NCBI GenBank assembly: GCA_020056965.1
Contig: JAGVGT010000072.1
Location: 6,197-70,196 of the forward strand
Length of the DNA: 64,000 nt
DNA from: Deltaproteobacteria bacterium
GTDB taxonomy: Bacteria; Desulfobacterota; Desulfobulbia; Desulfobulbales; JAGXFP01
Reading direction: 5' to 3'
Shown: in pieces, positions 5,016 through 29,688 of the stretch
Position numbering within the stretch: position 1 is the stretch's first letter
Layout of the letters: each line of letters starts with the position of its first letter
Notes under the pieces: generated by a model
Told to the model about the DNA's origin: nothing
What the model saw: the letters and a program-made list of their open reading frames with translations, nothing else
Database searches by the model: none
Translations under genes and position numbers: made by a program

Positions 5016-5084
5016 GGCTTCTGGCGTTTCCGCGCTTCCCCTATTGGGAAGGATAAATAATCACAAAGATTTTTGGTGAGATGC

Positions 5085-6818
5085 ATGCGCTATTCGCAGA
5101 TGTTGTTGCCGACCCTGAAAGAAAATCCCTCTGAGGCGGAGGTGGCCAGTCATCGCCTGCTCCTGCGGGGCGGCTTCATTCGGAGATTGACCGCCGGAGT
5201 TTATGCCTATTTACCTTTGGGGCTGGCGACCATCCGTAAGGTCGAGCAAATCGTCCGGGAAGAGATGAACCGGGCCGGCGCCCAGGAGGTATTGTTGCCC
5301 ATTGTCCAGCCCGCCGATCTCTGGATCGAGTCGGGGCGCTGGACCAAATACGGGCCGGAGCTCCTGCGTTTCAAAGACCGCCATAATCGGGAAAGTTGTC
5401 TGGGGCCGACCCATGAAGAGGTCATCACCGATCTGGTCCGGATGAACGTCCATTCCTACCGAAATCTGCCTCTGAACCTCTACCAGATTCAGACCAAGTT
5501 CCGCGACGAGATCCGCCCCCGCTTCGGGCTGATGCGGGGCCGCGAGTTCATCATGAAGGATGGCTACAGTTTTGACCTGGCCGAGGAGGGCGCCAATCTC
5601 ACTTATCAGAAGATGTACGACGCCTACCACCGGATCTTCGCCCGCTGCGGCCTGGCCTTTCGGGCGGTGGAGGCGGACACCGGCACCATCGGCGGCAGTT
5701 TTTCCCATGAGTTCATGGTTCTGGCCGCCACCGGTGAGGATACCATCGTGATCTGCCGGGCTGCGGGCTGCGGTTATGCCGCCAACCTGGAAAAAGCCGC
5801 CGGACCGGCCTCGGAAGCGCCAAAGGAACCGGCAGATATGCTGCCCTTGGAGAAGGTGGAAACCCCCGGGCAGCGCAAGGTCGCGGCGGTGATCGCCTTT
5901 CTGGGAATTGCCCCAAGCCAGCTGGTCAAGACCATGGTCTACCTGGCCGATGGTAAACCGGTGGCAGTCTTGGTCCGCGGCGACCACGAGGTCCAGGATG
6001 TCAAGCTCAAGAATCTTCTGGGGGCGGTGGATGTGGTGTTGGCCGACGACCAGCAGATCTTCGAGGCCACCGGGGTTCCCAGTGGTTATCTGGGGCCGGT
6101 CGGGCTTAAAATTCTGGTGGTGGCCGACCGCGAGGTTGCGGTGATGCGCAATGTGGTGATCGGCGGTGGCGAGAAGAACTATCATTTCCGCAACGCCAAT
6201 CTGGAGCGCGATTTCCGGGTCGAGAAGTTCGCCGATCTTCGGCAGGTGACTGCTACCGACCGCTGTCCCTGTTGCGGCGGCGAACTGGAGTTTCCCAAAG
6301 GTATTGAGGTCGGCCACATCTTCAAGCTCGGTACCAGCTACAGTCAGGCCATGAAGGCCACCTACCTGGATAAGGACGGTCAGGAGAAATTCTTCGTCAT
6401 GGGCTGTTACGGCATTGGGGTGAGCCGGATCGTCGCCGCCGCCATCGAGCAGAACCACGACCAGGACGGCATCATCTTTCCCCTGCCTCTTGCCCCCTTC
6501 AAGGTGGTGGTGCTTAACCTCTCTCCCAATGATGAAAAGATCAGCGGGGCGGCCGAAGCGATCTATCAGGGGCTGCTGGCGGCCGGGACCGAGGTGCTGA
6601 TTGACGACCGCGATGAGCGGCCGGGCAGTAAATTTAAAGATGCCGATCTGGTGGGGATTCCCTTCCGGGTTACGGTCGGCAAGGGGTTCACCGCTGACGG
6701 CACCGTTGAAGTTCGCCGGCGCGCTGGTGCGACCGTTGCCGTTCCTCTGGCCGATACGGTGGCGCTGATCCTTGCGGAGATCGACCGCGAAATGTCGGCC
6801 TTGGCCGGCCAAAGTTGA
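5085..6818 (+). CDS. proS: Proline--tRNA ligase (bacterial type with editing insertion)
   Basis: 'MRYSQMLLPTLKENPSEAEVASHRLLLRGGFIR' is a canonical ProRS N-terminus. I prefer ATG 5085 over the GTG at 5073 in the ORF track. Confidence 0.95.
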   Translation: MRYSQMLLPTLKENPSEAEVASHRLLLRGGFIRRLTAGVYAYLPLGLATIRKVEQIVREEMNRAGAQEVLLPIVQPADLWIESGRWTKYGPELLRFKDRHNRESCLGPTHEEVITDLVRMNVHSYRNLPLNLYQIQTKFRDEIRPRFGLMRGREFIMKDGYSFDLAEEGANLTYQKMYDAYHRIFARCGLAFRAVEADTGTIGGSFSHEFMVLAATGEDTIVICRAAGCGYAANLEKAAGPASEAPKEPADMLPLEKVETPGQRKVAAVIAFLGIAPSQLVKTMVYLADGKPVAVLVRGDHEVQDVKLKNLLGAVDVVLADDQQIFEATGVPSGYLGPVGLKILVVADREVAVMRNVVIGGGEKNYHFRNANLERDFRVEKFADLRQVTATDRCPCCGGELEFPKGIEVGHIFKLGTSYSQAMKATYLDKDGQEKFFVMGCYGIGVSRIVAAAIEQNHDQDGIIFPLPLAPFKVVVLNLSPNDEKISGAAEAIYQGLLAAGTEVLIDDRDERPGSKFKDADLVGIPFRVTVGKGFTADGTVEVRRRAGATVAVPLADTVALILAEIDREMSALAGQS

Positions 6819-6836
6819 CCAGGGGGTTGCCCAATC

Positions 6837-9029: not shown

Positions 9030-9071
9030 CGTGGGAATAAACCGAAAGAATGAAGGCAGGGTCACAAAAAA

Positions 9072-9106
9072 AAACGGGTACCAGCCGTTAAGCCGGTGCC
9101 CGTTTC
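9072..9106 (-). terminator. Rho-independent terminator for rpmB, possibly also serving rel
   Basis: Stem 'acgggtacc'/'ggtgcccgt'. An A9 run on the + strand gives a U-run after the stem on the minus strand. Confidence 0.7.
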
Positions 9107-9131
9107 TTGGGGTCTGAAAATTATTAAGTAA

Positions 9132-9341
9132 TCAGGCCTGCTTCGGATTGGCGACCGGTTTAACTACCGCGCCGGACCGGATACAGCGGGTGCAGACCTG
9201 CAGTTGCCGGTTGCCGGTGGGGCTTGCCACTCGGACGTTCTGCAGGTTCGGCAACCAGCGGCGCCTGGACTTATTGTGGGCGTGGCTGACGTTGTTGCCG
9301 GTGATCGGTTTCTTGCCGCAAACTTCACAAATATTAGCCAT
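9132..9341 (-). CDS. rpmB: 50S ribosomal protein L28
   Basis: '[34 protein letters not shown]' is the L28 signature. Confidence 0.95.
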
Positions 9342-9575
9342 GGTATTAACTCCTTGATCCTGTTTTTGAGAGGGGAACTTATAACGCGTCCGGACCAGGA
9401 TGGCAAGAATTTTGTCCGTACAACGGCGAGAATTTTTGAATCGGCTCCTTTGGTCAGTGGTGGCGCTCCTTCTGGGGTTCTAAATAATTGACACGGGGGG
9501 GAGGGAATGGTAGATTTCTCAACCATTTTAACTTGATAACGGTAGCCTTTCTGTCCCCCTCAACCAGAGTTGAAT

Positions 9576-10925
9576 ATGCAGAATAACAAGAACGAAATTT
9601 GGGCATTCCTGGCCTCGGTCAAACTGGCCCTGTTCACATTTTTCGCTTTGGCGATAACCTCAATCATTGGCACGGTTATCGAACAGGGTAAGGATATGGC
9701 TTACTATGTCGAGAGGTTCGGCCCTGGTACCGCCAAGTTTTTTCAGATTCTCAATGTACCGAATATGTATAGTTCTTGGTGGTTCATTTCCATGCTGGTT
9801 CTGTTTAGTTTGAATCTGTTGGTCTGCACCATCGACCGCTTTCCCAATATCTGGCGGTTGGTCAACTTGGATAATCTGGCTCTGGAGCTGGACCGGATTC
9901 TCAAGATGCCAAAGCGGCAGGTCTTTAAGTCGCAATTGTCGGCGGCGGAGTTGCATCAGGAAATCGAGAAGGCTCTGCCCGGTCTGTCCTGGAAATTCGA
10001 ATCGGCGGAGCTGGATGGCGGCAGACTATTTGCGGCCCAAAAAGGCAATTGGACTAGACTCGGGGTGATCATGGTCCATGTCAGCATCCTGGTCATTTTT
10101 GCCGGGGCCATAATCGGCGCCGCCTTCGGGTACAAGGGGTTCGTGATGATCCCTGAGGGTAGGTCGGTCAAGCAGATATACGCCTACGACGCCAATCGCA
10201 CCGAGATACCCTTGGACTTTTCGTTGCGTTGCGATCGCTTCGTGCTGGAGCTTTACGATACCGGTGCACCTAAGGAGTTTTTGTCGGATCTGGTGGTGGT
10301 CAAGGACGGGCAAGAGGTCCTCAAGCAGAGCATTGAGGTCAATGACCCCTTGCATTACGGTGGCCTTACCTTTTATCAATCGAGCTATGAGGCCTACGAC
10401 GAAGTGGTGCTGGAAATAGAGAACGGCACCAGCAAAGCAAAGAAAAAATTTATCGTTGGGATTGGCGAGCAGGTGGTCTGGCCGGAAGAACACCTGACGT
10501 TAGGGGTCGTCAATCGCATGGGCTCGAGAATGGCGGCTTTTGCTCGGGGCCAGGTTTGGCTGAAATCCGGGGAGGCTGAGCCGGTGCAGTTCTGGGTCAA
10601 CAGCGGCCAGTCGGCACTTATCGAGCGCCCTACTGGTAACTACGTGCTTACCTTGCGCCCGCTTTATGCCACCGGTCTGCAGGTTACCAGGGATCCAGGG
10701 GTTTGGTATGTATACATAGGCTGTATGTTGATGTTGGTGGGTCTGTATGTCGCCTTTTTTCTGTCGCATCGGAAGATTTGGCTCTACATCTCCGGAAGTG
10801 GCTCCGGCAGCACTCTGCACGTAGCCGGTGCCAGCAACAAGAACAAGCTCGGTTTTGAAAACGATTTCGCGGCCCTGATAGATAATTTGGAACAGAGCGG
10901 CACCCTGAAACTAACAAAGGAATAA
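9576..10925 (+). CDS. ccsB: Cytochrome c biogenesis protein ResB/CcsB (system II)
   Basis: About 450 aa. ResB-type N-terminal TM 'FLASVKLALFTFFALAITSIIGTVIEQG', a large periplasmic loop and a C-terminal TM. It sits immediately upstream of ccsA. I prefer ATG 9576 over TTG 9570. Confidence 0.88.
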   Translation: MQNNKNEIWAFLASVKLALFTFFALAITSIIGTVIEQGKDMAYYVERFGPGTAKFFQILNVPNMYSSWWFISMLVLFSLNLLVCTIDRFPNIWRLVNLDNLALELDRILKMPKRQVFKSQLSAAELHQEIEKALPGLSWKFESAELDGGRLFAAQKGNWTRLGVIMVHVSILVIFAGAIIGAAFGYKGFVMIPEGRSVKQIYAYDANRTEIPLDFSLRCDRFVLELYDTGAPKEFLSDLVVVKDGQEVLKQSIEVNDPLHYGGLTFYQSSYEAYDEVVLEIENGTSKAKKKFIVGIGEQVVWPEEHLTLGVVNRMGSRMAAFARGQVWLKSGEAEPVQFWVNSGQSALIERPTGNYVLTLRPLYATGLQVTRDPGVWYVYIGCMLMLVGLYVAFFLSHRKIWLYISGSGSGSTLHVAGASNKNKLGFENDFAALIDNLEQSGTLKLTKE

Positions 10926-10928
10926 GCC

Positions 10929-11777
10929 ATGACCAGTTCACTGCTTTTCGGCATTATCACGTTCACGTATCTGGCCGCCTCCTTTCTTTACATCGGCGGG
11001 TTTATTTTTCGTTCTCAGAAGGCGGGGTTGGTGGCATCGGTGCTCACCGGCCTCTCTTTTCTGGTCCAAACCGGTGCCATCGCATTGCGCTGGAAAGAGT
11101 CGTATTCGATGGGGTACGGGCATGCTCCTATGTCTAATATGTATGAGTCGCTGGTCTTTTTCTCTTGGGCGATCGTCATCTTCTACATGTTTATCGAGTA
11201 TAAGTTCAAAAATCGGCTGCTCGGGGCCTTTGCGGTGCCTTTTGCCTTCCTCAGTATGGCTTTGGCCTCCTTGACCGGCGACGAAATCAAGCCGTTGATC
11301 CCAGCCCTGCAGAGCAACTGGCTGATCGCCCACGTCATGACCTGTTTTGTCGGTTATGCTGCCTTTGCCGTGGCCTGCGGCATGGGGATCATGTACTTGA
11401 TCAAATCAACCTACGACGAAAAAGCCGACCGAAAAGGGGCGAGTCTACTGGCCACGCTGCCGCCTTTGAGCGTAATTGACGATATCACCCATAAGACTAT
11501 CGTCTTTGGTTTTCTCTGGTTGTCGGCGGGGATCATTACCGGGGCGATCTGGGCCAATTCCGCCTGGGGGACTTACTGGAGTTGGGACCCCAAGGAAACT
11601 TGGTCGTTGATTACCTGGTTCCTATATGCCGCAGCCCTTCATGCCCGCTTTACCAAGGGCTGGGGGGGGAAAAGGATCGCCTGGTTGGCGATTATCGGTT
11701 TTCTAGCTGTGGTCTTCACTTACTATGGCGTAAATTATCTCCTGTCCGGGCTGCACAGTTACGGATCGAGCGGGTGA
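10929..11777 (+). CDS. ccsA: Cytochrome c-type biogenesis protein CcsA/ResC (heme handling)
   Basis: Polytopic membrane protein with the WWD-type motif 'WANSAWGTYWSWDPKETW'. Confidence 0.9.
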   Translation: MTSSLLFGIITFTYLAASFLYIGGFIFRSQKAGLVASVLTGLSFLVQTGAIALRWKESYSMGYGHAPMSNMYESLVFFSWAIVIFYMFIEYKFKNRLLGAFAVPFAFLSMALASLTGDEIKPLIPALQSNWLIAHVMTCFVGYAAFAVACGMGIMYLIKSTYDEKADRKGASLLATLPPLSVIDDITHKTIVFGFLWLSAGIITGAIWANSAWGTYWSWDPKETWSLITWFLYAAALHARFTKGWGGKRIAWLAIIGFLAVVFTYYGVNYLLSGLHSYGSSG

Positions 11778-11967
11778 TTCGAGCGGTGATTAAGGGTATG
11801 TTGGGTTCCGCCTTCGCCTTGGCTGGTGATAGCGAATAAGAGGGTTTTTCTTTGAATGTTGGGTTTTTTCCTGCTTGACATTGCCGACTTATCCAGAATA
11901 TATGTTTGTCGCTCAGGTTTAATATTAGCTGTAAAATTCAGAATTATTAACCTTAAGGAGATTGGAA

Positions 11968-12330
11968 ATGTTCAAGAAGATTGTTCTTTGCGCAGCAGCG
12001 TTGGCCATGGTCTGTGGAGTAGCGGTAACTAGTGCCTCCGCTGCTGGTCCGGAAACTATTTCCTTCGATACCGCCAAGAAAGGCGGCACCAAGGTGACTT
12101 TCGGCCACAAGGCCCATCAGGCCATGATGGAGTGTAAGGAGTGTCATCACACCAAGGCTGCCGACGGTAAGCAGGGACCTTACGCCGCCGGCAAGGAAGC
12201 CAAGTGCGCCAGCTGCCACGAAGTGGGTAAGCCCAGCGACAACATCCACAAGAACTGCAAGGGTTGTCATCAGGCCGGACTGAACGGCAAGAAAGGCCCG
12301 ACCGGTTGTAACGATTGCCACAAGAAGTAA
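11968..12330 (+). CDS. Periplasmic tetraheme cytochrome c3/c7 family (PpcA-like)
   Basis: AAGGAG RBS at 11955-11960 and a signal peptide. Four CXXCH motifs (CKECH, CASCH, CKGCH, CNDCH). 'VTFGHKAHQ' and 'KKGPTGCNDCHKK' resemble Geobacter PpcA as I recall it. Confidence 0.85.
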   Translation: MFKKIVLCAAALAMVCGVAVTSASAAGPETISFDTAKKGGTKVTFGHKAHQAMMECKECHHTKAADGKQGPYAAGKEAKCASCHEVGKPSDNIHKNCKGCHQAGLNGKKGPTGCNDCHKK

Positions 12331-12356
12331 TTATCCGGACTTTGGTCAGGATTGGG

Positions 12357-12386
12357 AAAGGCTGCCCGAAAGGGCAGCCTTTTTTG
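12357..12386 (+). terminator. Rho-independent terminator
   Basis: 'aaggctgccc gaaa gggcagcctt' followed by a T5 run. Confidence 0.8.
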
Positions 12387-12468
12387 TTGGCGCCTTACGC
12401 CATTCCGCAATCGGGCGTGCGGCCTAATGGTGCTCGGCTTACTTTTTTTCGGCCTGTGGGCGTAAACA

Positions 12469-14511
12469 TTGCAAAAACCACTCGGTAACAATAACAACCA
12501 GGTTTCTTCACCCGGTGTCTGGAGCCACGTCCAGCTGTCTTTCCTGCTCTTGGGGATTGCGGTTGTGGCGACATTTTGTATAGCTTGTCTGATTTATCTT
12601 CTGACCGTTCTTAATCTGCCGAATATCTCCGCCCTCACGTCCTATCAGCCTCCGGAGGCCTCTCTGGTTATCGATTCCAGGGGGCAAGAACTGACCAGAT
12701 TCTATCGGGAAAATCGGCGGGTTATTAAACTTTCTGATATGCCTTCGCTTTTACCCAAGGCCTTCGTGGCCGCTGAGGATGGCAGATTTTACCAGCACGG
12801 CGGGGTGGATGGCTGGTCGGTGCTGCGGGCCGTTTTCAATAACCTCCGTTCTGGGCGGCGTTCCCAGGGAGGCAGCACCATCACCCAACAGGTGGCCCGC
12901 GCCCTTCTGCTGTCGCCGGAAAAAACTTATATCCGCAAACTGCGCGAGGCCGTCCTGGCTTACCGGATTGATCGGCTGCTTACCAAAGATCAGATCCTCC
13001 ACCTCTACCTGAATCAGATTTACCTTGGAGAGGGGGCCTACGGTGTTGAGGCGGCGGCCCGGGCCTATTTCGGTAAGCCGGCCAGGCAGCTTGATCTGGC
13101 CGAAATTAGCTTGCTGGCCGGTTTACCCCAGGCCCCCAGTCGTTATTCGCCCCTAGTCGATTTCAAGAGCGCTAAGACACGTCAGCGCTATGTCCTGAAC
13201 CGCATGGCGGAAGACGGATATGTGACCCCGGAAAAGGCCAGAGTCGCTTATGGGCAGGAGGTCCGCGTACACAGGGAACCTCCGCCCGACCCGAAGGAGG
13301 GGTATTTTTTTGAGGCGGTCCGCCAGTACGCGGAAGAGCGCTATGGTACGGAACGGTTGCTGGCTGGCGGCCTGACCATCCGGGTGACTATGGACCGGGA
13401 GTTACAGGCCGCAGCGGCTTTGGCTGTCGAGCGTGGGATTGCGGCCTGGCGGCAGCGTCATCCCAGGAAGAGCGATTATCCCCAAGGCGCTTTGGTGGCT
13501 CTGGAGGTGAAAAGTGGTCGGATTTTGGCCCTGGTCGGTGGCCGCGATTTTCGGACTAGCCAGTTTAATCGCGCGCTCCAGTCGCGGCGGCAACCGGGAT
13601 CGGTTTTCAAACCCATCATATATGCAGCGGCCTTGCAGGGTTCCTATACCCCGGCCAGCCTGCTCAATGATCAACCAATGGCCTTGCCCGGTGCGGCCGG
13701 GGAAGTCTGGCGACCCAGTAATTATGACGGCAAGTTCATGGGCCCGATTACCCTGCGGACCGGCCTGGTTCATTCCCGCAATATTGTTACCATAAAACTT
13801 TTGCAGGCGGTTGGCATCCGGCCGGTCGTAAAACTGTCTGAAAATCTGGGCATCAGCGCCCCCCTGGCTGAAAATCTTTCGTTGGCCTTGGGGACCTCCG
13901 GTGTGTCGTTGCTGGAAATGACCAGCGCCTACGAGGTCTTTGCCGATGGCGGGACCTATCTGGCACCATCGATGGTCGAGAGCATCAGCGACCGGCAGGG
14001 CCGAATCCTCGAAAAATCGGAGGCCGGTCATTCGCGAAGGGTTTTGCCGGCCAGTACGGCTTATCAGGTGACCAACCTCCTTCAGGGGGTGATCAAAGAG
14101 GGTACCGGCCGTCAGGCGGATGGTCTGGAAGGTGAAAGCGCCGGTAAGACCGGGACCACCGACAACAGCACTGATGCCTGGTTTATCGGCTATACCCCCG
14201 AATTGGTGACCGGGGTCTGGCTGGGCTTTGATCGCGGCGCCCATCTGGGCGAGGATGAAACTGGCGGTCGGGCGGCGGCGCCGGTTTGGTTGGATTTCAT
14301 GCGGGAGGCGATGCGGATTCGGCCGCCGGCGGTTTTGAATTTCCCGGTTCCAGAGGATGTGGTTCTCATGGCAGTGGATCAGGAAGGCGACAATATCAGG
14401 GACGGGGACGATTCCTCGAAGCTGCTTACCGCCTTTGCCCGCGAGCAGGAGCCGCTCCCCGGTAAGTCCGGCCTATTGAAAAACCTGTGGAATAAGCTGT
14501 GGGGGAAATAA
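12469..14511 (+). CDS. mrcA: Penicillin-binding protein 1A (glycosyltransferase + transpeptidase)
   Basis: GT51 motifs 'AAEDGRFYQHGGVD' and 'GGSTITQQ', and the transpeptidase motif 'PGSVFKP'. The start is uncertain (TTG 12469). Confidence 0.9.
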   Translation: MQKPLGNNNNQVSSPGVWSHVQLSFLLLGIAVVATFCIACLIYLLTVLNLPNISALTSYQPPEASLVIDSRGQELTRFYRENRRVIKLSDMPSLLPKAFVAAEDGRFYQHGGVDGWSVLRAVFNNLRSGRRSQGGSTITQQVARALLLSPEKTYIRKLREAVLAYRIDRLLTKDQILHLYLNQIYLGEGAYGVEAAARAYFGKPARQLDLAEISLLAGLPQAPSRYSPLVDFKSAKTRQRYVLNRMAEDGYVTPEKARVAYGQEVRVHREPPPDPKEGYFFEAVRQYAEERYGTERLLAGGLTIRVTMDRELQAAAALAVERGIAAWRQRHPRKSDYPQGALVALEVKSGRILALVGGRDFRTSQFNRALQSRRQPGSVFKPIIYAAALQGSYTPASLLNDQPMALPGAAGEVWRPSNYDGKFMGPITLRTGLVHSRNIVTIKLLQAVGIRPVVKLSENLGISAPLAENLSLALGTSGVSLLEMTSAYEVFADGGTYLAPSMVESISDRQGRILEKSEAGHSRRVLPASTAYQVTNLLQGVIKEGTGRQADGLEGESAGKTGTTDNSTDAWFIGYTPELVTGVWLGFDRGAHLGEDETGGRAAAPVWLDFMREAMRIRPPAVLNFPVPEDVVLMAVDQEGDNIRDGDDSSKLLTAFAREQEPLPGKSGLLKNLWNKLWGK

Positions 14512-20679: not shown

Positions 20680-21864
20680 ATGGACAAGATCAAAAATCCC
20701 TTTTCGCCAGGTGCTGGGTCTCCACCTCCAGAACTTGCTGGTCGCGCCGGTATTATGGAACAAGCCAGTGTGCTGTTGGGGCGAGTGCGCGCCAATCGGC
20801 CGGAAAAGAGCCTCTTGTTGACAGGGCTGCGCGGGGTTGGGAAGACCGTTTTGCTTAATGAGATTGATCGACTGGCGCAAGGCACCGGCTATCGAACCAT
20901 TATGGTTGAGGCGCATGAGGGCAAGTCGTTGGCCGTATTGTTGGCACCTCACCTCCGGCGTCTGTTGTTCGATTTGGACCGGATTGCTGGGGCCGGTGAC
21001 AAAGTGCGGCGGGGCATTGCGGTGCTTAAAAGTTTTGTCGGCGCAATTAAGATCACGGTTGGCGAGATCGACATCGGCTTGGATATTGAGCCGGAAGCGG
21101 GCGCTGCAGATAGCGGTGATCTTGAGGTCGATCTTCCCAGCCTGTTTATGGCTGTGGGCGAAGCTGCGCAGGAGCGCGGTGTTGCCGTTGCCATCCTGAT
21201 CGACGAGATTCAGTATTTCAGTTCGTCAGAGCTAAGTGCCTTGATCATGGCCATGCACAAGATGCAGCAGCGGCAGCTTCCCCTGGTGCTGATCGCTGCC
21301 GGTTTGCCGATTCTGCCGGGTCTGGCGGGGGAGTCAAAATCCTACGCCGAGCGCTTATTCAGTTTCCCAGATGTGGGTCCTTTGCCGGAACCGGATGCGA
21401 TTAAGGCTCTCCAAGACCCGGTTCTGGTGGCTGGAGAAGCGTTTGAACCATCTGCCCTGCAAGAGATTTTTCGATTGACCAAGGGCTATCCCTATTTCCT
21501 GCAGGAGTGGGGCTATCAAGCATGGAATCACGCTGCCGCTTCTCCGATTACCCTGCAAGTGGTTCAGGAGGCAAGCGAGCTGGTCTCCCTGCGGCTGGAC
21601 GAAAACTTTTTCCGGGTTAGGTTTGACCGGTTGACTCCCCGCGAAAAGAAGTTTCTGCGGGCCATGGCCGAGCTTGGAGCCGGGCCATACCGGACTGGCG
21701 ACGTTGCGGATAAGCTTGGTATAAAGATTAGCACCCTTGGGCCTCTCCGTGCCGGTTTGATCAAGAAAGGGATGGTGTATAGCCCGTCCTACGGCGATAT
21801 GGCTTTCACTGTGCCACTGTTTGATGAGTTCATGCGCCGCGCCATTCCAAATTTTGAGCCTTGA
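20680..21864 (+). CDS. Orphan AAA-type ATPase with C-terminal winged-helix (AAA_16/Arch_ATPase-like 'ATP-binding protein')
   Basis: Walker A 'GLRGVGKT', Walker B 'VAILIDEIQYF', and a C-terminal wHTH-like stretch 'LTPREKKFLRAMAELGAGPYRTGDVADKLG'. Confidence 0.7.
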   Translation: MDKIKNPFSPGAGSPPPELAGRAGIMEQASVLLGRVRANRPEKSLLLTGLRGVGKTVLLNEIDRLAQGTGYRTIMVEAHEGKSLAVLLAPHLRRLLFDLDRIAGAGDKVRRGIAVLKSFVGAIKITVGEIDIGLDIEPEAGAADSGDLEVDLPSLFMAVGEAAQERGVAVAILIDEIQYFSSSELSALIMAMHKMQQRQLPLVLIAAGLPILPGLAGESKSYAERLFSFPDVGPLPEPDAIKALQDPVLVAGEAFEPSALQEIFRLTKGYPYFLQEWGYQAWNHAAASPITLQVVQEASELVSLRLDENFFRVRFDRLTPREKKFLRAMAELGAGPYRTGDVADKLGIKISTLGPLRAGLIKKGMVYSPSYGDMAFTVPLFDEFMRRAIPNFEP

Positions 21865-22334: not shown

Positions 22335-22410
22335 GCCCTCGTAGCTCAGGGGATAGAGCACAGGATTCCTAATCCTGGAGTCGTAGGTTCGATTCCTACC
22401 GGGGGCACCA
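22335..22410 (+). tRNA. tRNA-Arg (anticodon CCT)
   Basis: Folded by hand. Acceptor GCCCTCG/CGGGGGC, D arm GCTC-AGGGGATA-GAGC, anticodon stem CAGGA/TCCTG with loop TTCCTAA, T arm GTAGG-TTCGATT-CCTAC, and an encoded CCA. Confidence 0.92.
22366..22410. repeat. attL-like direct repeat (3' 45 nt of tRNA-Arg)
   Basis: Identical to 26889-26933: 'ttcctaatcctggagtcgtaggttcgattcctaccgggggcacca'. Confidence 0.9.
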
Positions 22411-22455
22411 CAATATCAAGTAGTTACCTCGTTTGCCTCATTCATTGTCTCTTTC

Positions 22456-22491
22456 CAGTGTGCAAATTATTTACACACTGAGATTGTTTTT
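22456..22491 (+). terminator. Hairpin plus T-run downstream of tRNA-Arg, supplied by the islet
   Basis: 'cagtgtg' / 11-nt loop / 'cacactg', followed by 'agattgttttt'. Confidence 0.45.
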
Positions 22492-22687
22492 CTGAAGTTA
22501 TCTTTCTGGGTTTAATAATAAATTTGTAAATATATCAGTGAGTTGTCTCGCTTGGTGGAGATTGTGGCACCAGTATTGTCAATCCTGGAGTCGGGCGATG
22601 GATCGAGCAAGTTCTGTATCTTCAAGCCTTATTTGACTCGGCTGTTGAATCTATGCTCTTTTCAAAGTTAACCACGTGTGGCTGACC

Positions 22688-25114
22688 TTACAGGTGGAGT
22701 TGTTTTTGCTCTTCCTGAACACTGTATCCAATGGCTTTGTACCCTTGAATCCGGCGATTGTACATTCTCATGAGCATCGGAATATCTGTGTCGATGTAGT
22801 CGTAAACGCGAACCTCTTTTTTGCCGTCGAAATTTCGGTGTAGTCTGCCTGCATACTGCTGCAATGTCCCTCTCCATGAAATTGGTAGGGCCAATAGAAG
22901 GGTGTCCAATCGAGCATCGTCAAAACCCTCGCCAATGTAACGACCGGTTGCAATAAGCACTCTTTCCTTATTGTCCCCGATGTCGTCAAGGTTTTTGGCG
23001 ACCTCGGTTCTTTGCTTTTTTCCCATGCCACCTCGAAGAATTACAACATTCTTCGCTTTTCCATCCAGAAGTTCAGCTAATCGCTCCAGGTGATCCGTTC
23101 TTTCCGTGAGAACGAGCGGGGATCTACCGTCTTTTAGTGATTGCAGGACATCAGCTACGATCATCAAATTTCGACTTTCGTTGGCTGCCAGCTCTCTGTA
23201 GATTTCCTGTATTGAAGGAGTGCCTCCTGATGTTGTGATCTTAGCGTCGGTAAAGCGTGGGATCATCACGTGGTCGAATGGGCGGGCTTTTGCCGCAGAT
23301 CTGGCCTCAACTCGGAAACGTATCGGGCCGCATTGCATGAGAATAATGGGATGATGCCCGTCTTTTCTCACTGGTGTTGCCGTAAGGCCCAGAATGTATT
23401 TTGCCTTGGCCTTCTTCATGATCTGTTCGAAACTGAAGGCTGAAAGGTGGTGACATTCATCCACGATAATCTGTCCATACTCCGCAATAATATCGTTGAC
23501 CTCACCCTTTCGGTAAAAGCTTTGCAAGATGCCAATGTCAAGGCGTCTGGTGGGTTTTTTGCTGCCTCCTCCTATCTGCCCGATATCTTTTTCAGGAATA
23601 TCAAGGAAAGATGCCAACCTTTCTCGCCATTGATCCAGGAGCTGACGGCGGTGAACCAGGATCAGGGTGCTGCGTTTTCTCACAGCGATGAGCTTTGCCG
23701 CGACCACCGTCTTGCCAAAGGCGGTGGCTGCGCTAAGGATGCCTGTATCGTGTGATCGCAACGCCTTGACCGCTGGGATTTGTAGATCACGCAGACGACC
23801 TTTGAACGAGACCTCTAATGGTTTCCCTGTGGTTCGTTCATCTTGTATTGCGAGTTCGATATTAATGCTGCTAAAGAGCTCGGCGGCATCAGTCAGGCAT
23901 CCACGGGGAAGACCGATATGTTTGGGGAAATCTTCTGAGCAAGAGATAACCCGAGGCTTGTCATAGGTCGGTAATCGCATTGCCTGAAATTTGTAAAAGT
24001 CGGGATTTTGAAAGGCAGCAAGTCGGATTAATCTGTTTTGAAGGGCTGGCGGCAAACCCTCCTTTTCGATGTATAAAAGGTCGGCAAGAACTGCTTTGAT
24101 CATTGCTGGTAGCGGGCCTTTTATGATGGGCTCTATCAGCTTGGCGGAAGGCGGCAGTGTCCAGGGATCATCATCAACTTCGTCGCTGGTCTGACTTATC
24201 CTAACTCCAATAACTTCGCCTTTTCTGGTCGCATCTTGAGCAATTAATTCAAGCTCGTGGCCTGATATCGAGCGTACACCGGAAAGAAACGCCCATTGGT
24301 CAGGATAAGGATGGAAGTTCTCATCAAGAAAGACACTGTTTCCCTTTTCTCTTGGCCCCTTTTGTAAAGGCAAGGCAATGAGATTGCCGAATCCCCCTTT
24401 GGGCAGAGTGTCTTGATTCGGAAAAAGGCGGTCATATGAGTCAAGTCCGATCTGGTGGCGTTTCTCCATAGTGATTGTAAGAATGTAGCACCCAACCTTG
24501 CGGGCGATGGAGGCTTCGACTGGTTTAGAAAAGAAAATCCACACATGGCCACCATTTCCGGAGCGGGATCTTTCAAGAATTGCTGGTACCCCGAGGTTTT
24601 TGCAGCTCTCTAAATATTCAGCGACGTCTTCCTGCCATGTCCTTTTGTCAAAATCAGCAGCGAGGAACCAACAAGTGTCGTTCTGAAGCAAGGGATAAAC
24701 CCCGACAGTGTGTTTGCCGACAAGATGATCGTAAATGACCTTGTCCGTAACCGGTAAGAAATCGCGATGGTCACATTGTCCGCATTTGACCCGGGGTTTA
24801 TCGCAAAAGGTACGATTCCATTCGTGCCTACAGGCTGGCGAGTATCCGGTTTTCCCGCCTTTTGTTTCCCAGCGAACGGGATAGATATCCTCTCTGCCCT
24901 TAAAAAGGCGGCTGAAAATGGCAATTTTTATATCGGACGGAGAATCGTTTGTTACACCTGACTTGGAAGAATGTGAGCGAGGTGTGGTTTCTGGGGCGGG
25001 TGGGTTTTCCTGCGGTAGATTGAGGTGTTTTCTGAGGCGCTCATTTTCTTGCCGGAGTTTGGCGCATTCAGAGAGTGCCTCCTCAAGTCTTTTATGGGCG
25101 TCACTATTGTGCAT
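22688..25114 (-). CDS. Archaeo-eukaryotic primase (PrimPol-like) domain fused to SF2 DEAD/DEAH-box helicase
   Basis: 808 aa. AEP motifs are 'LAADFD' (DxD, aa 154-156), 'SGNGGHVWIFF' (sxH, H190) and 'SYDRLFP' (D228). A Cys cluster lies at C95/C104/C111/C114. Helicase motifs are 'AFGKT' (I), 'DECHH' (II), 'LTATP' (III) and 'QYAGRLHR' (VI). Confidence 0.85.
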   Translation of the reverse strand: MHNSDAHKRLEEALSECAKLRQENERLRKHLNLPQENPPAPETTPRSHSSKSGVTNDSPSDIKIAIFSRLFKGREDIYPVRWETKGGKTGYSPACRHEWNRTFCDKPRVKCGQCDHRDFLPVTDKVIYDHLVGKHTVGVYPLLQNDTCWFLAADFDKRTWQEDVAEYLESCKNLGVPAILERSRSGNGGHVWIFFSKPVEASIARKVGCYILTITMEKRHQIGLDSYDRLFPNQDTLPKGGFGNLIALPLQKGPREKGNSVFLDENFHPYPDQWAFLSGVRSISGHELELIAQDATRKGEVIGVRISQTSDEVDDDPWTLPPSAKLIEPIIKGPLPAMIKAVLADLLYIEKEGLPPALQNRLIRLAAFQNPDFYKFQAMRLPTYDKPRVISCSEDFPKHIGLPRGCLTDAAELFSSINIELAIQDERTTGKPLEVSFKGRLRDLQIPAVKALRSHDTGILSAATAFGKTVVAAKLIAVRKRSTLILVHRRQLLDQWRERLASFLDIPEKDIGQIGGGSKKPTRRLDIGILQSFYRKGEVNDIIAEYGQIIVDECHHLSAFSFEQIMKKAKAKYILGLTATPVRKDGHHPIILMQCGPIRFRVEARSAAKARPFDHVMIPRFTDAKITTSGGTPSIQEIYRELAANESRNLMIVADVLQSLKDGRSPLVLTERTDHLERLAELLDGKAKNVVILRGGMGKKQRTEVAKNLDDIGDNKERVLIATGRYIGEGFDDARLDTLLLALPISWRGTLQQYAGRLHRNFDGKKEVRVYDYIDTDIPMLMRMYNRRIQGYKAIGYSVQEEQKQLHL

Positions 25115-26030
25115 ATTTGCGCCATGGTCCTGGAGCCACCCAAACTCCAGCTTCGTGATGCTTGGATCGGAGATGCTTCACAATCGGGGTAAGGAATTCC
25201 CTGATCAACGAAATAACAACCTCAAAATTTTCTGGAGAATCCGTCTGCCCCAGTCTTTTCCTGAAGGCCTTCCATTGCTGAGATTTGATTTGCGCAAATT
25301 GATCTGAAAATGCCGGGATCTGTTCCGGGAGGTCCGTGCCGCGTTGGCGTAGTGTTTTCTCGATGGCCAGACATAGATTTTCTTCGTCAAAGTTAAATTG
25401 TCTGGCAAGCATCCAGATATCATAGAAATCCTTCATGCGGCTGTTCAACTCGCCCAGTTTGACCATGGCTTCGAACTTTTCGGCAATGGCACTTTCAATG
25501 GAGTAGCCCTGGAGGTCGGGGGCCGGAAAGTCAAGCAGGGATGGCAGCGAAATCCTTTGTGGGCCAGGGACAACAATGTCGCCAAAGCCGATATCGAGTT
25601 GCATGTTGATTCGAGCGGTATCAAGCTTGCCGATAAACCGAACCCGCACTCCATGGTAATCGGCATCTTCGGTGATTCGTTCAGCCACAATAGATTTGTC
25701 ATCAAAGGTCAAGCCATCATCCGGTTGAACTAGCGTTGTGCAGATATCCCTAACCTGCCCAATGACTATGTCGATTGCGTTGCTGGACTCCCGACCAAGC
25801 ATATCGATATCCATGGTCGCCCTCGCCAAGGGAAACTTCCATGCCCTGAGCATTAATGCGCCTTTCAGAAGAAAGGTATTAGAATGTGAGGATTGTGAGA
25901 GCCGATACAGAAATCGTTCCATAGCAAAATATTGCAACAGTTCGGCAAAAGGGCGCTGTTCCTGGCGGGCCTTATTCAGTAGCCGTTGCCGAATTGAGAC
26001 CCCGATATTTCTGGGTGTTTGGGTGGTCAT
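25104..26030 (-). CDS. abiEii: Nucleotidyltransferase AbiEii/AbiGii toxin family (type IV toxin-antitoxin)
   Basis: 308 aa. 'FLLKGALMLR', 'TMDIDM' (pol-beta-type catalytic Asp pair) and 'ESAIAEKFEAMV' are typical of DUF1814/AbiEii. Confidence 0.85.
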   Translation of the reverse strand: MTTQTPRNIGVSIRQRLLNKARQEQRPFAELLQYFAMERFLYRLSQSSHSNTFLLKGALMLRAWKFPLARATMDIDMLGRESSNAIDIVIGQVRDICTTLVQPDDGLTFDDKSIVAERITEDADYHGVRVRFIGKLDTARINMQLDIGFGDIVVPGPQRISLPSLLDFPAPDLQGYSIESAIAEKFEAMVKLGELNSRMKDFYDIWMLARQFNFDEENLCLAIEKTLRQRGTDLPEQIPAFSDQFAQIKSQQWKAFRKRLGQTDSPENFEVVISLIREFLTPIVKHLRSKHHEAGVWVAPGPWRKYAQ

Positions 26031-26620
26031 ATCAACGATTCGAGATATGGTTTCATGATATGGTCAACCCGGCAGATACGCCCGTATTTCAGCAGGAGTT
26101 CGCCGTTTCTCTTTCCCCTGGCCCCATAGAGTTTCAGGGCTTCAAGGACCACATCCATTCCCAGCTTGTTGCGGAATTTAAAACAGTCGGCTATGGTTTT
26201 CTCTGGATCGTACACCTTGACGGCTACGCCATCGATATCATGTCGCTCAATCCCGGCCTCATAAGCTTCCTGGGAAAAACGATGGGCCTCTATCGGCGGG
26301 TAATCAAGAGACGGAAGTCGATCATCCCGTGAGACTGCTATTGATACTCGGTGGGGGACTTGGGTTGTCAGTCCATGAAAGGACAGGGCGGATATAAGAC
26401 ATATCACCGCCTTGGGGTATCGCAGACAGACAGTGGCCAGGTCGGGATTGCTTATTGAGGGAAGCTCAGATAGACGATATACCCCCCTCGATACGGCGGT
26501 AATAACTTTTTGGTCCCTCAGACGGTAAAAGGCAGACCGGCTGACTCCCCCGGCAATGGCTTCGCTCATTCGCAGTTGACCACCGGCAAGCCGGAATATG
26601 TCTACGGGATTGTTTTTCAC
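26027..26620 (-). CDS. abiEi: AbiEi-family antitoxin / transcriptional regulator (type IV toxin-antitoxin)
   Basis: 197 aa. N-terminal wHTH-like 'RLRDQKVITAVSRGVYRL' and 'AVICLISALSFHGLTTQVP', typical of AbiEi. There is a 4-nt ATGA overlap with abiEii. Confidence 0.8.
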   Translation of the reverse strand: MKNNPVDIFRLAGGQLRMSEAIAGGVSRSAFYRLRDQKVITAVSRGVYRLSELPSISNPDLATVCLRYPKAVICLISALSFHGLTTQVPHRVSIAVSRDDRLPSLDYPPIEAHRFSQEAYEAGIERHDIDGVAVKVYDPEKTIADCFKFRNKLGMDVVLEALKLYGARGKRNGELLLKYGRICRVDHIMKPYLESLI

Positions 26621-26752
26621 TCTTGGGCCGATTGAAACCTTTTGTCGCCATTAGTTAATAAGTGGTGACATTATGTCTTGTCGGTTTGCCAAGGTCAAGC
26701 TCTTTCGCTTGATTAGGTCGTCAAGTATATTCCGGTCGTCAGATTGTTGGCC

Positions 26753-26816
26753 GGTGTGTGACTTGGTGTGTGACTTTTCGTAGAAAGTCTGCTAAAGGAT
26801 ATAAAATCTGCTAAAG
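26753..26816. repeat. Iteron-like direct repeats at the upstream end of the islet
   Basis: 'ggtgtgtgactt' occurs twice in tandem (26753-26776). 'tctgctaaag' occurs twice, 19 nt apart start to start (26788-26797 and 26807-26816). Confidence 0.7.
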
Positions 26817-26888
26817 TGTGTAAAATTTATCCTTTTGCTTTCGATAACTTATTGAATTTAGGCATTTATTTAGATGCCTTTGGGCGTG

Positions 26889-26933
26889 TTCCTAATCCTG
26901 GAGTCGTAGGTTCGATTCCTACCGGGGGCACCA
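26889..26933. repeat. attR-like direct repeat (copy of the tRNA-Arg 3' 45 nt)
   Basis: Perfect copy of 22366-22410. It has no matching tRNA 5' half upstream, so it is not a functional tRNA. Confidence 0.9.
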
Positions 26934-27122: not shown

Positions 27123-28088
27123 GTGAAACACTATAGTCTACTGGGACTCGTGGTTGTTGTGGGGGTGATGCTACTGGTTCCCCGTCTGGTCTATGCCCAC
27201 AGCGCAACGGGCCCTTGTGTCGATTGTCACACCATGCACAACAGCCAGAATGGTATCATGGAGGATAGTAACGGGCCGCAGGAGAATCTGCTGAAATTAA
27301 GTTGCATCGGTTGCCACGCCCGGACCTTTAATGATTCTACTGGTCGGGCTTCTTCCGCTGGCGGACCGGCTGCCCCACAAGTCGGGCCGTTGGCTGTCAA
27401 CGGAAGTTATCAGCTTTCCGGCGGATACTTTAGCACGACAGCCAATGCAACTACTCATAACGTGGCCGATATTCCGGGTACTGCACCCGACTCGCTAATA
27501 ACGTCTAACAGTGCTCCGGGCGGAACATTTGCCTTGCAAGACGGCGCTAAGCCGAAGTTGCGCTGCAATAGCTGTCACGATTCGGCCATTCGCCATGCCG
27601 CCGCTGGTTCTGAGCGCTTCGGCACAGCCGCTAGTTCATACCGCATGCTGCACGGCACCACGGCCCCCCTGTATGTGAAAGGGACAGGGGCGGCTGATTT
27701 TGAGGCCGGAGCTACGCAGAACCTCTACGATGCCCTCTCCATCAATCGTTTTTGCGCCCTCTGTCATGGCCTTTTTCATAGTCTGACTAACACCGACAGT
27801 ATCGGTGATGGCAACGGGGCCTGGGTACGGCACCCGACCGATGTTTCCACCAGCGATATTATCAACGGCCCTTCGCCCAACTATGAAGGGGGCGATAAGG
27901 TGGTCCCGCTCGGTGACGCTGGGGCTGTTGCGGCGGGGCACACCAATCAGGTGATGTGTCTCTCCTGCCATCGGGCGCATGGGAATGCCAACTCCGACAT
28001 GCTGCGGTTCAATTATAACGTTACAGGCAATCTGGCCGGTGATGTTGCTGTCTCGCAGGGGTGTGAGACCTGTCACGGCGCGAAATAA
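27123..28088 (+). CDS. OmcS-like hexaheme c-type cytochrome (secreted)
   Basis: GTG start with a GGGGGAG RBS, and a signal peptide ending 'VYA'. Six CXXCH motifs (CVDCH, CIGCH, CNSCH, CALCH, CLSCH, CETCH). 'CVDCHTMHNS', 'APGGTF', 'CLSCHRAHG..DMLRFN' and the terminal 'CETCHGAK' parallel G. sulfurreducens OmcS as I recall it. Confidence 0.75.
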   Translation: MKHYSLLGLVVVVGVMLLVPRLVYAHSATGPCVDCHTMHNSQNGIMEDSNGPQENLLKLSCIGCHARTFNDSTGRASSAGGPAAPQVGPLAVNGSYQLSGGYFSTTANATTHNVADIPGTAPDSLITSNSAPGGTFALQDGAKPKLRCNSCHDSAIRHAAAGSERFGTAASSYRMLHGTTAPLYVKGTGAADFEAGATQNLYDALSINRFCALCHGLFHSLTNTDSIGDGNGAWVRHPTDVSTSDIINGPSPNYEGGDKVVPLGDAGAVAAGHTNQVMCLSCHRAHGNANSDMLRFNYNVTGNLAGDVAVSQGCETCHGAK

Positions 28089-28231: not shown

Positions 28232-28618
28232 ATGGCTCTATTCGACATGTCAGAGAAGCGGGATCGAACCAGAATCCCGGTTGACGCCAAAGTGATTCTC
28301 CACGCCGAAAACAAGGCTTTTTTCCTTGACGGTACCACCAGGGACGTGAGCATGAAGGGGCTTTTCGCCCGGAGTGATTTCGGGTTTCCGGTCGGGACCA
28401 AGTGCCAGATTGAGATCGTCCTGACCGGCCGTTCCTCGGAGTTGACCATCAAGCTGGGCGGCACCATTGTCCGGCGAGAAAAAGGGGGCTGCGGGGTTTT
28501 GTTTGAGGACGACCTGGAATGGTGGCCGGTATTTGCCATGCATCTTGCCAGTCACGAAAGTCATGGACGGGACTGGAAGTTTCTCGAGACCGGTCTGTCG
28601 GAACTGGATGACGACTGA
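28232..28618 (+). CDS. PilZ domain protein (c-di-GMP binding)
   Basis: 'KRDRTRIP' (RxxxR) and 'DVSMKG' (DxSxxG). I prefer ATG 28232, which has a GGGGAG RBS. Confidence 0.8.
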   Translation: MALFDMSEKRDRTRIPVDAKVILHAENKAFFLDGTTRDVSMKGLFARSDFGFPVGTKCQIEIVLTGRSSELTIKLGGTIVRREKGGCGVLFEDDLEWWPVFAMHLASHESHGRDWKFLETGLSELDDD

Positions 28619-28883: not shown

Positions 28884-29093
28884 TTACATCCCGCTGACGG
28901 CGCTGAACCACCCTTTGATCAGTCCGATGGGGCTCCCAGAGCCCAGCATAGCGCTGGCCAGGCAAGCAACCGCCCACAGCCCAACCAGGGCCGAAGCCGC
29001 ACCCATGGTGATGATGCTTCCTCTCGATACCGTGTCGATGGCCGCTTTGGAGGATTCCTGGGTTTGTGTCTGGGATTTGCTGGAGGTTGCCAT
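28884..29093 (-). CDS. Small single-TM protein, paralog 1 (hypothetical)
   Basis: 69 aa, with an AGGAG RBS 7 nt upstream. Shares the hydrophobic core 'G.WA.ACLA' with the next gene. Confidence 0.6.
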   Translation of the reverse strand: MATSSKSQTQTQESSKAAIDTVSRGSIITMGAASALVGLWAVACLASAMLGSGSPIGLIKGWFSAVSGM

Positions 29094-29135
29094 TTTCTTT
29101 CTCCTGGAATGTGAAATGGTTTAACTATCTCAATT

Positions 29136-29372
29136 TTAGCGGCCGATAATAGCTGCGGCCAGTTGTCTGATCATGCTTAACGGCCCATCCTGGAAGAAGG
29201 TGTTGGCCAGACAGGCCAGCGCCCAAAATCCTGCAAAAAAGGCGGTTGCTCCAATTATGAACAGGGTGAACTGGTTTACGGTCTCGTTGTTACTACTGGT
29301 GTCCTGGTAAGCCTGCCAGGCGCCTCTTCTCTTCACCCGGGTCAGGGCGGTTTCTTTTTCGTATTCCCGCAT
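29136..29372 (-). CDS. Small single-TM protein, paralog 2 (hypothetical)
   Basis: 78 aa from ATG 29372 (the ORF track extends to TTG 29441). The core 'GATAFFAGFWALACLANTFFQDGP' aligns with paralog 1. Confidence 0.5.
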   Translation of the reverse strand: MREYEKETALTRVKRRGAWQAYQDTSSNNETVNQFTLFIIGATAFFAGFWALACLANTFFQDGPLSMIRQLAAAIIGR

Positions 29373-29688
29373 GATTGGTTTTCCGGTCTGCTTGGTTTTA
29401 TTTTGTGTTGCCGCTGTGAGTTGATGCCAATCCTGTGCCAATAGATGATGCTTCGATAATTCAATTGGTTGCTTGGGCTGTAGATGTTTTTGATGCCATT
29501 ATGGCATGGTGCTTATGTCATTTTGACAAAGCCGCTTTCTGGTCGGCCGGGTGATTTGGTTAAGCGGTCAGGAGGCGACAATCTCCTTGACGGAGTAGCG
29601 CCGATGGGATTATTTGCACGGGATTTTTGACTCCCGCCCCGGTCCGACGATGCCGGTAAATGATGAGTTATCCAGTTGGTGAGATGTC

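Follow-up and report, generated by a model that had tools for sequence, protein, structure and literature searches.

An IS-excision enhancer (IEE) family protein encoded behind abiEi and abiEii on an integrase-less tRNA islet of a Deltaproteobacterium

The window analyzed here is a 64,000-nucleotide stretch of contig JAGVGT010000072.1 (positions 6,197 to 70,196, forward strand) from a Deltaproteobacteria bacterium (assembly GCA_020056965.1), and its minus strand carries at positions 22688–25114 a gene for an 808-amino-acid protein, P0001, whose N-terminal half is an AEP primase-polymerase and whose C-terminal half is a DExH superfamily 2 (SF2) ATPase. We found that P0001 belongs to the IEE (insertion-sequence excision enhancer) family, and we consider it likely that it acts as the characterized IEE of E. 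coli does. Its gene is the last in an abiEi–abiEii–iee operon on a horizontally acquired islet that has no integrase. An earlier note on this DNA, made from the letters alone, had called the architecture of the protein unusual; the same full-length architecture is in fact found in at least 8000 clusters at 90% identity (about 50–60% identity, many phyla), and the note had not recognized them as the IEE family. Both the architecture and the core biochemistry of this family, like the family itself, were known before, and P0001 adds a distant member.

Results

P0001 is a full-length relative of E. coli IEE

A BLASTP comparison aligned residues 1–799 of P0001 with residues 2–777 of ECs_1305 from E. 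coli O157:H7 (48% identity, 65% positives, 743 bits). ECs_1305, a protein of 786 amino acids encoded within the element SpLE1, is labelled 'IS-excision enhancer IEE' in the Sakai chromosome, and its alignment with P0001 takes in an N-terminal helix, four cysteines and all of the catalytic motifs. The two proteins have the same Pfam profile: IEE matches PF22548 (E=1.7e-98) together with ResIII and Helicase_C, and P0001 matches the same AEP-TOTE family, PF22548, at residues 63–289 (E=2.8e-103), ResIII at residues 440–583 (E=5e-26) and Helicase_C at residues 655–761 (E=2.7e-6). Mutagenesis has defined D142, D144, H178 and D216 as the catalytic residues of the IEE AEP domain, which is of the Z1568-like family, and K451 as the Walker lysine of the motor (Calvo 2023, PMC9943667); these residues map to D154, D156, H190, D228 and K468 of P0001 with identical spacing. 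The SF2 counterparts of the Walker A lysine K451 and of the arginine finger R735 are conserved in P0001, as K468 and R757/R760, and a 'TATPxRRDG' block is common to both proteins.

The architecture is therefore real yet known, because P0001 is a full-length relative of a characterized protein, and its membership in the family is a direct observation. When the AEP half alone was used as the query, it retrieved 1,625 clusters at 50% identity (E<1e-30), and the closest named homologs of P0001 come from Thermodesulfobacteriota-type metagenome genomes.

Domain architecture and conservation

The gene is an 808-codon open reading frame (ORF) with an ATG start, read from 25114 to 22688; the earlier note had named no strand. 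Its parts, with the residues that they span and the AlphaFold2 local confidence (pLDDT) where it bears on the assignment, are as follows.

22688–25114, minus strand: IEE-family gene encoding P0001, 808 residues (ORF and translation, Pfam, 48% identity to E. coli IEE)
25025–25108, minus strand: long N-terminal helix, residues 3–30, with leucine-zipper-like heptads and Asn24 at an 'a' position (AlphaFold2, pLDDT 73–90)
24938–25024, minus strand: Pro/Ser-rich disordered spacer, residues 31–59, unconserved (pLDDT 31–51)
24215–24937, minus strand: AEP (PrimPol) catalytic domain, residues 60–300, with catalytic D154, D156, H190 and D228 (PF22548, Foldseek, profile search of PDB sequences)
24773–24832, minus strand: Cys4 cluster C95/C104/C111/C114, a putative zinc knuckle (conserved in homologs, present in IEE)
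24134–24208, minus strand: variable disordered inter-domain linker, residues 303–327 (pLDDT <50; gaps and low conservation)
23840–24103, minus strand: small folded alpha/beta module, residues 338–425, N-terminal to the motor (AlphaFold2 secondary structure, pLDDT 73–93)
23255–23797, minus strand: SF2 RecA-like lobe 1, residues 440–620, with Q445, GKT 467–469, DECHH 551–555, TATP 578–581 and R583-K-D585 (ResIII 5e-26, XPBII 6e-26)
22715–23212, minus strand: SF2 RecA-like lobe 2, residues 635–800, with motif VI, Q753-x2-G756-R757-x2-R760 (Helicase_C, conservation, Foldseek matches to XPB and UvsW)

The motifs and other elements that the earlier note had listed for the protein all lie where it placed them and are conserved in homologs: AADFD at residues 152–156, GGHVWIFF at 188–195 and SYDRLFP at 226–232 in the AEP half, and AFGKT at 465–469, DECHH at 551–555, LTATP at 577–581 and QYAGRLHR at 753–760 in the motor. 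We assessed conservation in an alignment of 54 homologs of 58–80% identity and separately in 55 more distant representatives. In the set of 54, the invariant residues include D154, D156, H190, D228, R229, F231, P232, Q234 and D235 of the AEP domain, all four cysteines (C95, C104, C111 and C114), and G467-K468-T469, the DECH box, T580-P581, Q753, G756, R757 and R760 of the motor; R583-K584-D585, directly after motif III, is conserved as well. The motif residues that are invariant in this closer set, all four cysteines included, remain at least 90% conserved in the 55 distant representatives, and blocks that are invariant or at least 90% conserved include 'DR.FP.QD', 'GFGNLIALPLQ', Q445 and TATP. 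Because the Pfam scores and the conservation across homologs agree, the listed motifs are not chance matches.

Both of the segments between and beside these blocks that are disordered, residues 31–60 and 303–327, are variable among homologs. The first is the Pro/Ser-rich linker of the earlier note, which we found at residues 31–60. Of the second linker that it described, about 150 residues long, only residues 303–327 are disordered; residues 338–425 form a folded alpha/beta module with conserved N370, P371 and P403-R404-G405. The heptad-like stretch that it had seen near the N terminus spans K8–L31 and coincides with the predicted helix at residues 3–30, in which L20, N24 and L27 are invariant and L10 and L14 at least 90% conserved among the 54 homologs.

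Predicted structure of the two halves

An AlphaFold2 model built from the 54-sequence alignment (mean pLDDT 78) places the parts in the order helix 3–30, disordered spacer, AEP domain 60–300, disordered linker 303–327, alpha/beta module 338–425 and two RecA-like lobes. When the AEP domain was compared with the PDB by Foldseek, its matches were the CAPP PrimPol structures 7NQD, 7NQE and 7NQF (TM score 0.78–0.81 on the target, 26% identity), and a profile search of PDB sequences with P0001 returned XPBII (6e-26) and CAPP (4e-24). AEP model, fold and conservation of catalytic residues thus agree on the AEP assignment that had been proposed for this half. The C-terminal ~470 residues matched archaeal XPB from XPB–Bax1 complexes (E=1e-20), XPB of TFIIH and T4 UvsW. 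Published HHpred searches with IEE gave the templates 7NQE and UvsW 2OCA, as we found for P0001.

The earlier description of the motor as ResIII-like was right in that this half is a DExH SF2 ATPase with a ResIII match at 5e-26, and XPB/UvsW-like is the better term. Archaeal XPB (6P4O/6P4F) and T4 UvsW (2OCA) are its best structural matches, at only ~20% identity. It shares with XPB an extra N-terminal module before lobe 1 and the R583-K-D585 triplet after motif III, which we take to resemble the RED motif of XPB. The Foldseek alignments to XPB cover ~490 columns against targets of ~437 residues, and the module at residues 338–425 is probably, as judged from the model, the counterpart of the DRD-like domain at the N terminus of archaeal XPB. 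P0001 lacks the Bax1-like nuclease partner of XPB–Bax1, although some IEE relatives are fused to PLD or DUF559 nucleases. Its NCBIfam matches were all below threshold (CAPP, 104 bits against a 200-bit cut-off; XPB, 70 against 610 bits; and RadD), and because the XPB score is under the cut-off, the motor is XPB-like rather than an XPB orthologue. In PADLOC, P0001 matches Cas-associated PrimPol models.

The C95-x8-C104-x6-C111-x2-C114 cluster, which had been noted from the translation as a possible zinc site, precedes the part of P0001 that can be aligned to CAPP (query residues 127–302) and is therefore a family-specific elaboration of the AEP domain. The knuckle plausibly binds zinc, and the zipper-like N-terminal helix could plausibly mediate dimerization for synapsis. 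Neither feature is mentioned in the IEE papers that were text-searched for such terms: Calvo 2023 yielded nothing on cysteines or on a zinc site of IEE, and a coiled coil was likewise absent from the text covered.

The gene ends an abiE operon on a tRNA-bounded islet

The surroundings of the gene in the window comprise the following features.

25104–26030, minus strand: abiEii, nucleotidyltransferase toxin (Pfam AbiEii 7.6e-46, PADLOC AbiEii 4.6e-99)
26027–26620, minus strand: abiEi, antitoxin and transcriptional regulator, first gene of the operon (Pfam AbiEi_4, PADLOC AbiEi 6e-70)
26643–26698, minus strand: promoter-like site TTGACC-17-CATAAT (10/12) with an overlapping imperfect palindrome, just upstream of abiEi; the best-scoring site
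22335–22410, plus strand: tRNA-Arg(CCT), where the islet is inserted (ARAGORN)
22366–22410, plus strand: left 45-bp direct repeat, equal to the 3′ end of the tRNA (repeat family D1, 100% identity)
26889–26933, plus strand: right 45-bp direct repeat, a perfect copy (repeat family D1)
22571–22593, plus strand: degenerate third att-like fragment inside the islet (repeat family D2, 83% identity), kept in the sister islet described below

The stop of abiEii overlaps the start of the IEE gene by 11 nucleotides on the same strand. From its sequence, the site at 26643–26698 is likely to be the promoter of the operon and, as AbiEi autoregulation is established in the literature, also the AbiEi operator. 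The two repeats delimit a 4,523-bp islet that contains only abiEi, abiEii and the IEE gene, with no integrase, and the G+C content of the islet (0.44–0.52) is lower than that of its flanks (0.55–0.60).

A sister islet, on a contig of a different sample (L015), has these three genes as well and is 93.4% identical in nucleotide sequence to that of the window over 4,387 nucleotides. The similarity stops exactly at a tRNA-like 3′ end of a different sequence, one that is absent from the assembly of the window. In a genome of the same genus (G001), tRNA-Arg(CCT) is followed within ~330 nucleotides by homologs of the window genes at 28252–28618 and 28884–29402; this gene order without the islet identifies the site as unoccupied, on gene order only, as the non-coding junction is too diverged for nucleotide alignment with the window. 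The G001 site (L140, C5:97592–100671) also lacks the multi-haem cytochrome gene that the window carries at 27123–28088.

To the left of the tRNA, outside the repeats and convergent with the islet, the plus strand of the window encodes a 394-residue AAA_16/AAA_22 ATPase (20680–21864) with weak PADLOC matches to mad8 and CARF.

Homologs lie beside interchangeable modules, often in similar islets

At ~110 further loci we found no constant partner gene. The immediate neighbours were interchangeable addiction or defence modules: depending on the locus, HigB/HTH, AbiE, type II restriction-modification, DarT/Macro, Gp49/HTH, AAA_15 with HEPN and PIN, ParE, YhcG, RhuM or an integrase. In a tally of 133 upstream and 127 downstream ORFs, AbiEii/AbiEi was the most frequent neighbour (8 and 7 ORFs), followed by Fic, PIN, Schlafen/AlbA_2, BrnT and SNF2+SWIM, and Phage_integrase was counted at most once on either side.

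At no fewer than 10 further loci, tRNA-derived direct repeats of ~18–68 nucleotides (most 45–68) bracket islets of 3.5–8.3 kb; 9 of the repeat-bounded loci belong to the 54 loci that had enough flank. The target tRNAs include those for Arg, Leu, Pro, Thr, Gly, Cys and Ser, among others, and no tyrosine or serine recombinase was present inside any of the 12 tRNA-repeat-bounded islets. The stop codon of the IEE gene lies 150–280 nucleotides from one end of the islet, in either orientation relative to the tRNA. The repeat-bounded islets, each with an IEE homolog and a differing toxin-antitoxin or defence cargo, include the following.

Window: 22366–26933
L009: 4786–11780
L012: 7095–10674
L031: 839–4464
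L057: 3763–8337
L066: 4254–9075, with a third repeat copy at 11124
L068: 149–8540
L026, L033, L056 and L069: also repeat-bounded

A shared cis element was not apparent: blastn between loci found similarity in coding DNA only, and the gene-to-border segments of 9 islets held no shared 8–10-mers above shuffled expectation. At L012, two islets stand in tandem (1550–3872 and 7095–10674), with an integrase just outside the second repeat. The intact one comprises Gp49, HTH and the IEE gene; the other comprises abiEi, abiEii and the first ~250 nucleotides of an IEE gene (88% identical), and the two have in common a conserved 124-nucleotide non-coding left end despite their different cargo.

Other copies have other settings. 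Five related genomes labelled 'delta proteobacterium' (L001, L003, L004, L006 and L014) have an IEE homolog (at 8001) adjoining a CdhD-like gene (~10.6–12.6 kb) and differ upstream, where they carry either ParE, a fragment of YhcG, or an AAA_15 ATPase with a type I restriction-modification system. Three of them, the metagenome-assembled L001, L003 and L006, have the IEE gene split in two ORFs, possibly through long-read indel errors. On large conjugative plasmids, an IEE homolog has as its neighbours either a tyrosine recombinase trio or TniQ together with VapBC and an integrase. The trio is seen in the Rhodobacterales plasmids pDSHI01 of D. shibae (L017) and pAMI8 of P. aminophilus (L018), where three consecutive tyrosine recombinase genes (8469–11933), resembling a 'recombinase in trio', are convergent after the homolog. 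A Bacteroidota-type block from IMG/VR consists of HTH_17 (Xis-like), a sigma-like gene of 219–237 codons, DUF3307, a 967-residue IEE homolog and two convergent Bacteroides-type tyrosine integrases; it recurs, at ~4900–12900, in at least 8 gut metagenome contigs classed as viral (L113, L115, L119, L124 and others).

The full-length AEP–SF2 fusion occurs in none of 50,697 phage records, in keeping with the earlier note's view that this is not a classic replicase. A phage or plasmid replicase of the pRN1 ORF904 or P4 alpha type was rejected on the nature of the motor, which is SF2 rather than SF3 or DnaB, and on the phage and plasmid distribution.

Among family variants of 905–1106 residues, some add a C-terminal PLDc_2 domain (P0165 and P0193) or DUF559/REase_MTES_1575 (P0126), and in one a TraG P-loop replaces the SF2 motor (P0125). 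Some variants have N-terminal GNAT or FMN-reductase-like extensions, which may be gene-call fusions.

E. coli IEE, like P0001, is carried on acquired DNA at a tRNA locus. Its element, SpLE1, has an annotation of at least 86 kb that begins just ahead of the SpLE1 integrase, whereas the gene for P0001 shares an operon with the AbiE genes on a 4.5-kb islet that holds three genes and no integrase. In the Sakai element (L141, 16030–18799), a gene for a DUF3987 protein precedes iee, as does a small ORF that weakly matches REP_ORF2-G2P; these DUF3987 and REP-like genes amount to a replication-like module, which was not found beside the IEE gene of the window.

Discussion

What P0001 would do, by analogy with E. 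coli IEE

The biochemical activities of P0001 and its role in its host would be those described for E. coli IEE. The AEP domain of that protein is a Mn-dependent, error-prone DNA polymerase; its C-terminal half is a DNA-dependent ATPase whose unwinding activity was undetectable, in which it differs from the XPB and UvsW helicases; and the entire protein can join 3′ overhangs by way of microhomology of at least 4 bp (microhomology-mediated end joining), for which both domains are required (Calvo 2023, PMC9943667). In cells, according to the accounts in Calvo 2023 (PMC9943667) and Chandler 2023 and to Kusumoto 2011 as cited there, IEE boosts the transposase-dependent excision of insertion sequences (ISs) of the IS3, IS1 and IS30 families and causes deletions. 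LigD PolDom/PrimPolC and Pol theta likewise extend 3′ ends paired by microhomology, and Pol theta also couples its polymerase to an SF2 helicase-like domain (Calvo 2023, PMC9943667); LigD is nevertheless of a different AEP clade and Pol theta of a different polymerase family, and P0001 has no ligase or phosphoesterase domain.

By this analogy, the ATPase half of P0001 would hold double-stranded DNA and juxtapose either a pair of single-stranded 3′ ends or a primer with a displaced template, and the AEP half, using Mn2+, would lengthen a 3′ end that is paired by microhomology of a few bases. Inside the cell, the transposase intermediates of copy-out-paste-in ISs (the IS3, IS1 and IS30 families) would be resolved in this way with loss of the IS, and deletions would also be generated. 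The net effect would be an anti-transposon, end-joining activity. The repair- or surveillance-like role that the earlier note had favored was right in spirit.

Several points weigh against so direct a transfer. An identity of 48% gives no guarantee of the same role in vivo, and the activity of P0001 is a prediction from its sequence. The cellular role of E. coli IEE is itself debated, between end-joining after cut-out and strand switching during copy-out. The host lineage of P0001 differs from that of IEE, and no IS3/IS30-type transposase was detected in its assembly: we found no rve-type transposase and no IS3 OrfA (HTH_Tnp_1) in 3.08 Mb on 96 contigs, an assembly that is 90% complete and of a kind in which repeats are often lost. 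Finally, the constant presence of toxin-antitoxin or restriction genes as neighbours, together with the variants that carry PLD or DUF559 nucleases, could point to a broader anti-invader role. The lack of rve and HTH_Tnp_1 matches may reflect an artefact of assembly or, alternatively, be consistent with the purging of ISs.

Alternative readings

A broader role could take the form of a stand-alone anti-phage or anti-plasmid effector of the TOTE kind, in which the XPB-like motor would recognize the invader, aberrant priming or synthesis would poison its replication, and IS excision would be a side activity; we regard this as unlikely. The acronym TOTE, as PMC12458937 gives it with reference to Aravind, Iyer et al. 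2022, stands for TPR, OB, TBP, Effector, and the Pfam family to which the AEP domain of P0001 belongs, PF22548, bears the name 'TOTE conflict system AEP', which bears out the link to 'conflict systems' that the earlier note had drawn. The matches to Cas-associated PrimPol in PADLOC, the nuclease domains (PLDc_2 or DUF559/REase) of longer relatives and a neighbourhood, over ~100 loci, of AbiE, HigBA, DarTG, type II restriction-modification, Fic, PIN, BrnT, Zeta, HEPN, Schlafen/AlbA_2, SNF2+SWIM, AAA_15, RhuM and DruA fit such an effector too. However, any cargo of a mobile island would also co-locate with defence genes, the sole activity tested in the family is on IS elements, and the literature that we searched contained no experimental anti-phage phenotype. 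The TPR-OB and TBP genes that define TOTE systems are, moreover, absent from the P0001 locus and from the surroundings of ~100 homologs, with no recurrent partner of either kind among 260 neighbouring ORFs or at 16 loci inspected individually. A canonical TOTE system was accordingly rejected, there being no TPR-OB (TPR-S1/CSD) or TBP gene in the islet and none recurrent in the 133 + 127 neighbouring ORFs. That P0001 is a CAPP-helicase type primase-polymerase serving CRISPR spacer acquisition has, in our estimation, next to no chance of being correct. The CAPP-helicase type has been described (Zabrady 2021, PMC8211822), and CAPP or Cas-associated PrimPol provides both the closest solved AEP structure, with the same catalytic motifs (the Marinitoga protein), and the PADLOC model. 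Yet MpCAPP has TPR and PriCT domains where P0001 has an SF2 motor, the NCBIfam CAPP score is far below its cut-off, and non-CRISPR homologs for the most part have the helicase fusion (Zabrady 2021, PMC8211822). CAPP has a CRISPR-Cas context, whereas the three-gene islet has neither a cas gene nor an array, its flanks are housekeeping genes, and no cas family is recurrent among the neighbours of ~100 homologs. A CRISPR-associated PrimPol at this locus is effectively refuted, as no CRISPR-Cas system is present.

The islets themselves invite a different reading, in which the protein is a replication or mobility protein (pri-rep-like) of minimal integrase-less elements that move at tRNA genes by host recombination or with an integrase supplied in trans. 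No gene other than that for IEE is constant across the islets, islets with bounding repeats occur at many tRNAs with no tyrosine or serine recombinase in any of the 12, the stop codon lies 150–280 nucleotides from one islet end, and the Bacteroidota-type elements place the gene between an Xis-like gene and two integrases. We nonetheless give this reading only a small chance. E. coli IEE lacks unwinding activity, and the text of Calvo 2023 (PMC9943667), as far as it was covered, contains no mention of a primase assay. The full-length protein is missing from the phage records, and the plasmid records listed are all large (89 kb–1.4 Mb) and presumably replicate by their own means, the three inspected being conjugative. 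Neither the gene-to-border segments nor the comparison between loci yielded a shared non-coding motif, and many copies lie outside discrete islets, for example at the five syntenic cdhD-linked loci. Equally improbable, in our view, is that the three genes abiEi, abiEii and iee form one obligate system, with the primase-helicase functionally coupled to the AbiE toxin. The 11-nucleotide overlap, the same trio at 93% identity in another sample, and the finding of AbiEii/AbiEi upstream more often than any other neighbour (at 8 of ~70 metagenomic loci and also at L009 and L013) would be expected of such a system, but most homologs lack AbiE and have HigBA, DarTG, restriction-modification or Gp49/HTH instead, and E. 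coli IEE functions without AbiE. The variable cargo beside the homologs is more in keeping with AbiE as interchangeable addiction cargo than as a fixed partner. The best-supported reading remains that of an IEE-family enzyme that was acquired, along with an AbiE addiction module, on a small tRNA-associated islet.

Implications for the IEE family

As a protein architecture P0001 is of little import, since its family is named, is in Pfam and has been studied biochemically. What may be new, in a minor way, are the conserved Cys4 knuckle, the zipper-like helix and the recurrent integrase-less tRNA-flanked islets in which the IEE gene is constant. It is conceivable, though we think it rather doubtful, that IEE-family genes are a hallmark of recurrent minimal integrase-less islets of 3.5–8 kb, set between 45–68-bp repeats of various tRNA 3′ ends and with swappable toxin-antitoxin or restriction cargo, and that the Cys4 knuckle and the zipper are functional. 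The knuckle would then serve metal-dependent priming or DNA binding, and the zipper would serve dimerization in end synapsis. Such islets might arise if the deletion activity of IEE trimmed the islands that carry it until only 'IEE + addiction module' was left, or IEE might support the movement of the islet, with excision and integration carried out by host recombination or by integrases in trans.

The value of the finding is comparative. The IEE family spans many phyla at high conservation, and its gene typically stays constant while the addiction or defence modules that accompany it are exchanged, in many cases on very small islets that are flanked by a tRNA and have no integrase. Should this pattern of islets reflect the activity of IEE, an anti-transposon enzyme would be tied to how genomic islets are shaped or moved.

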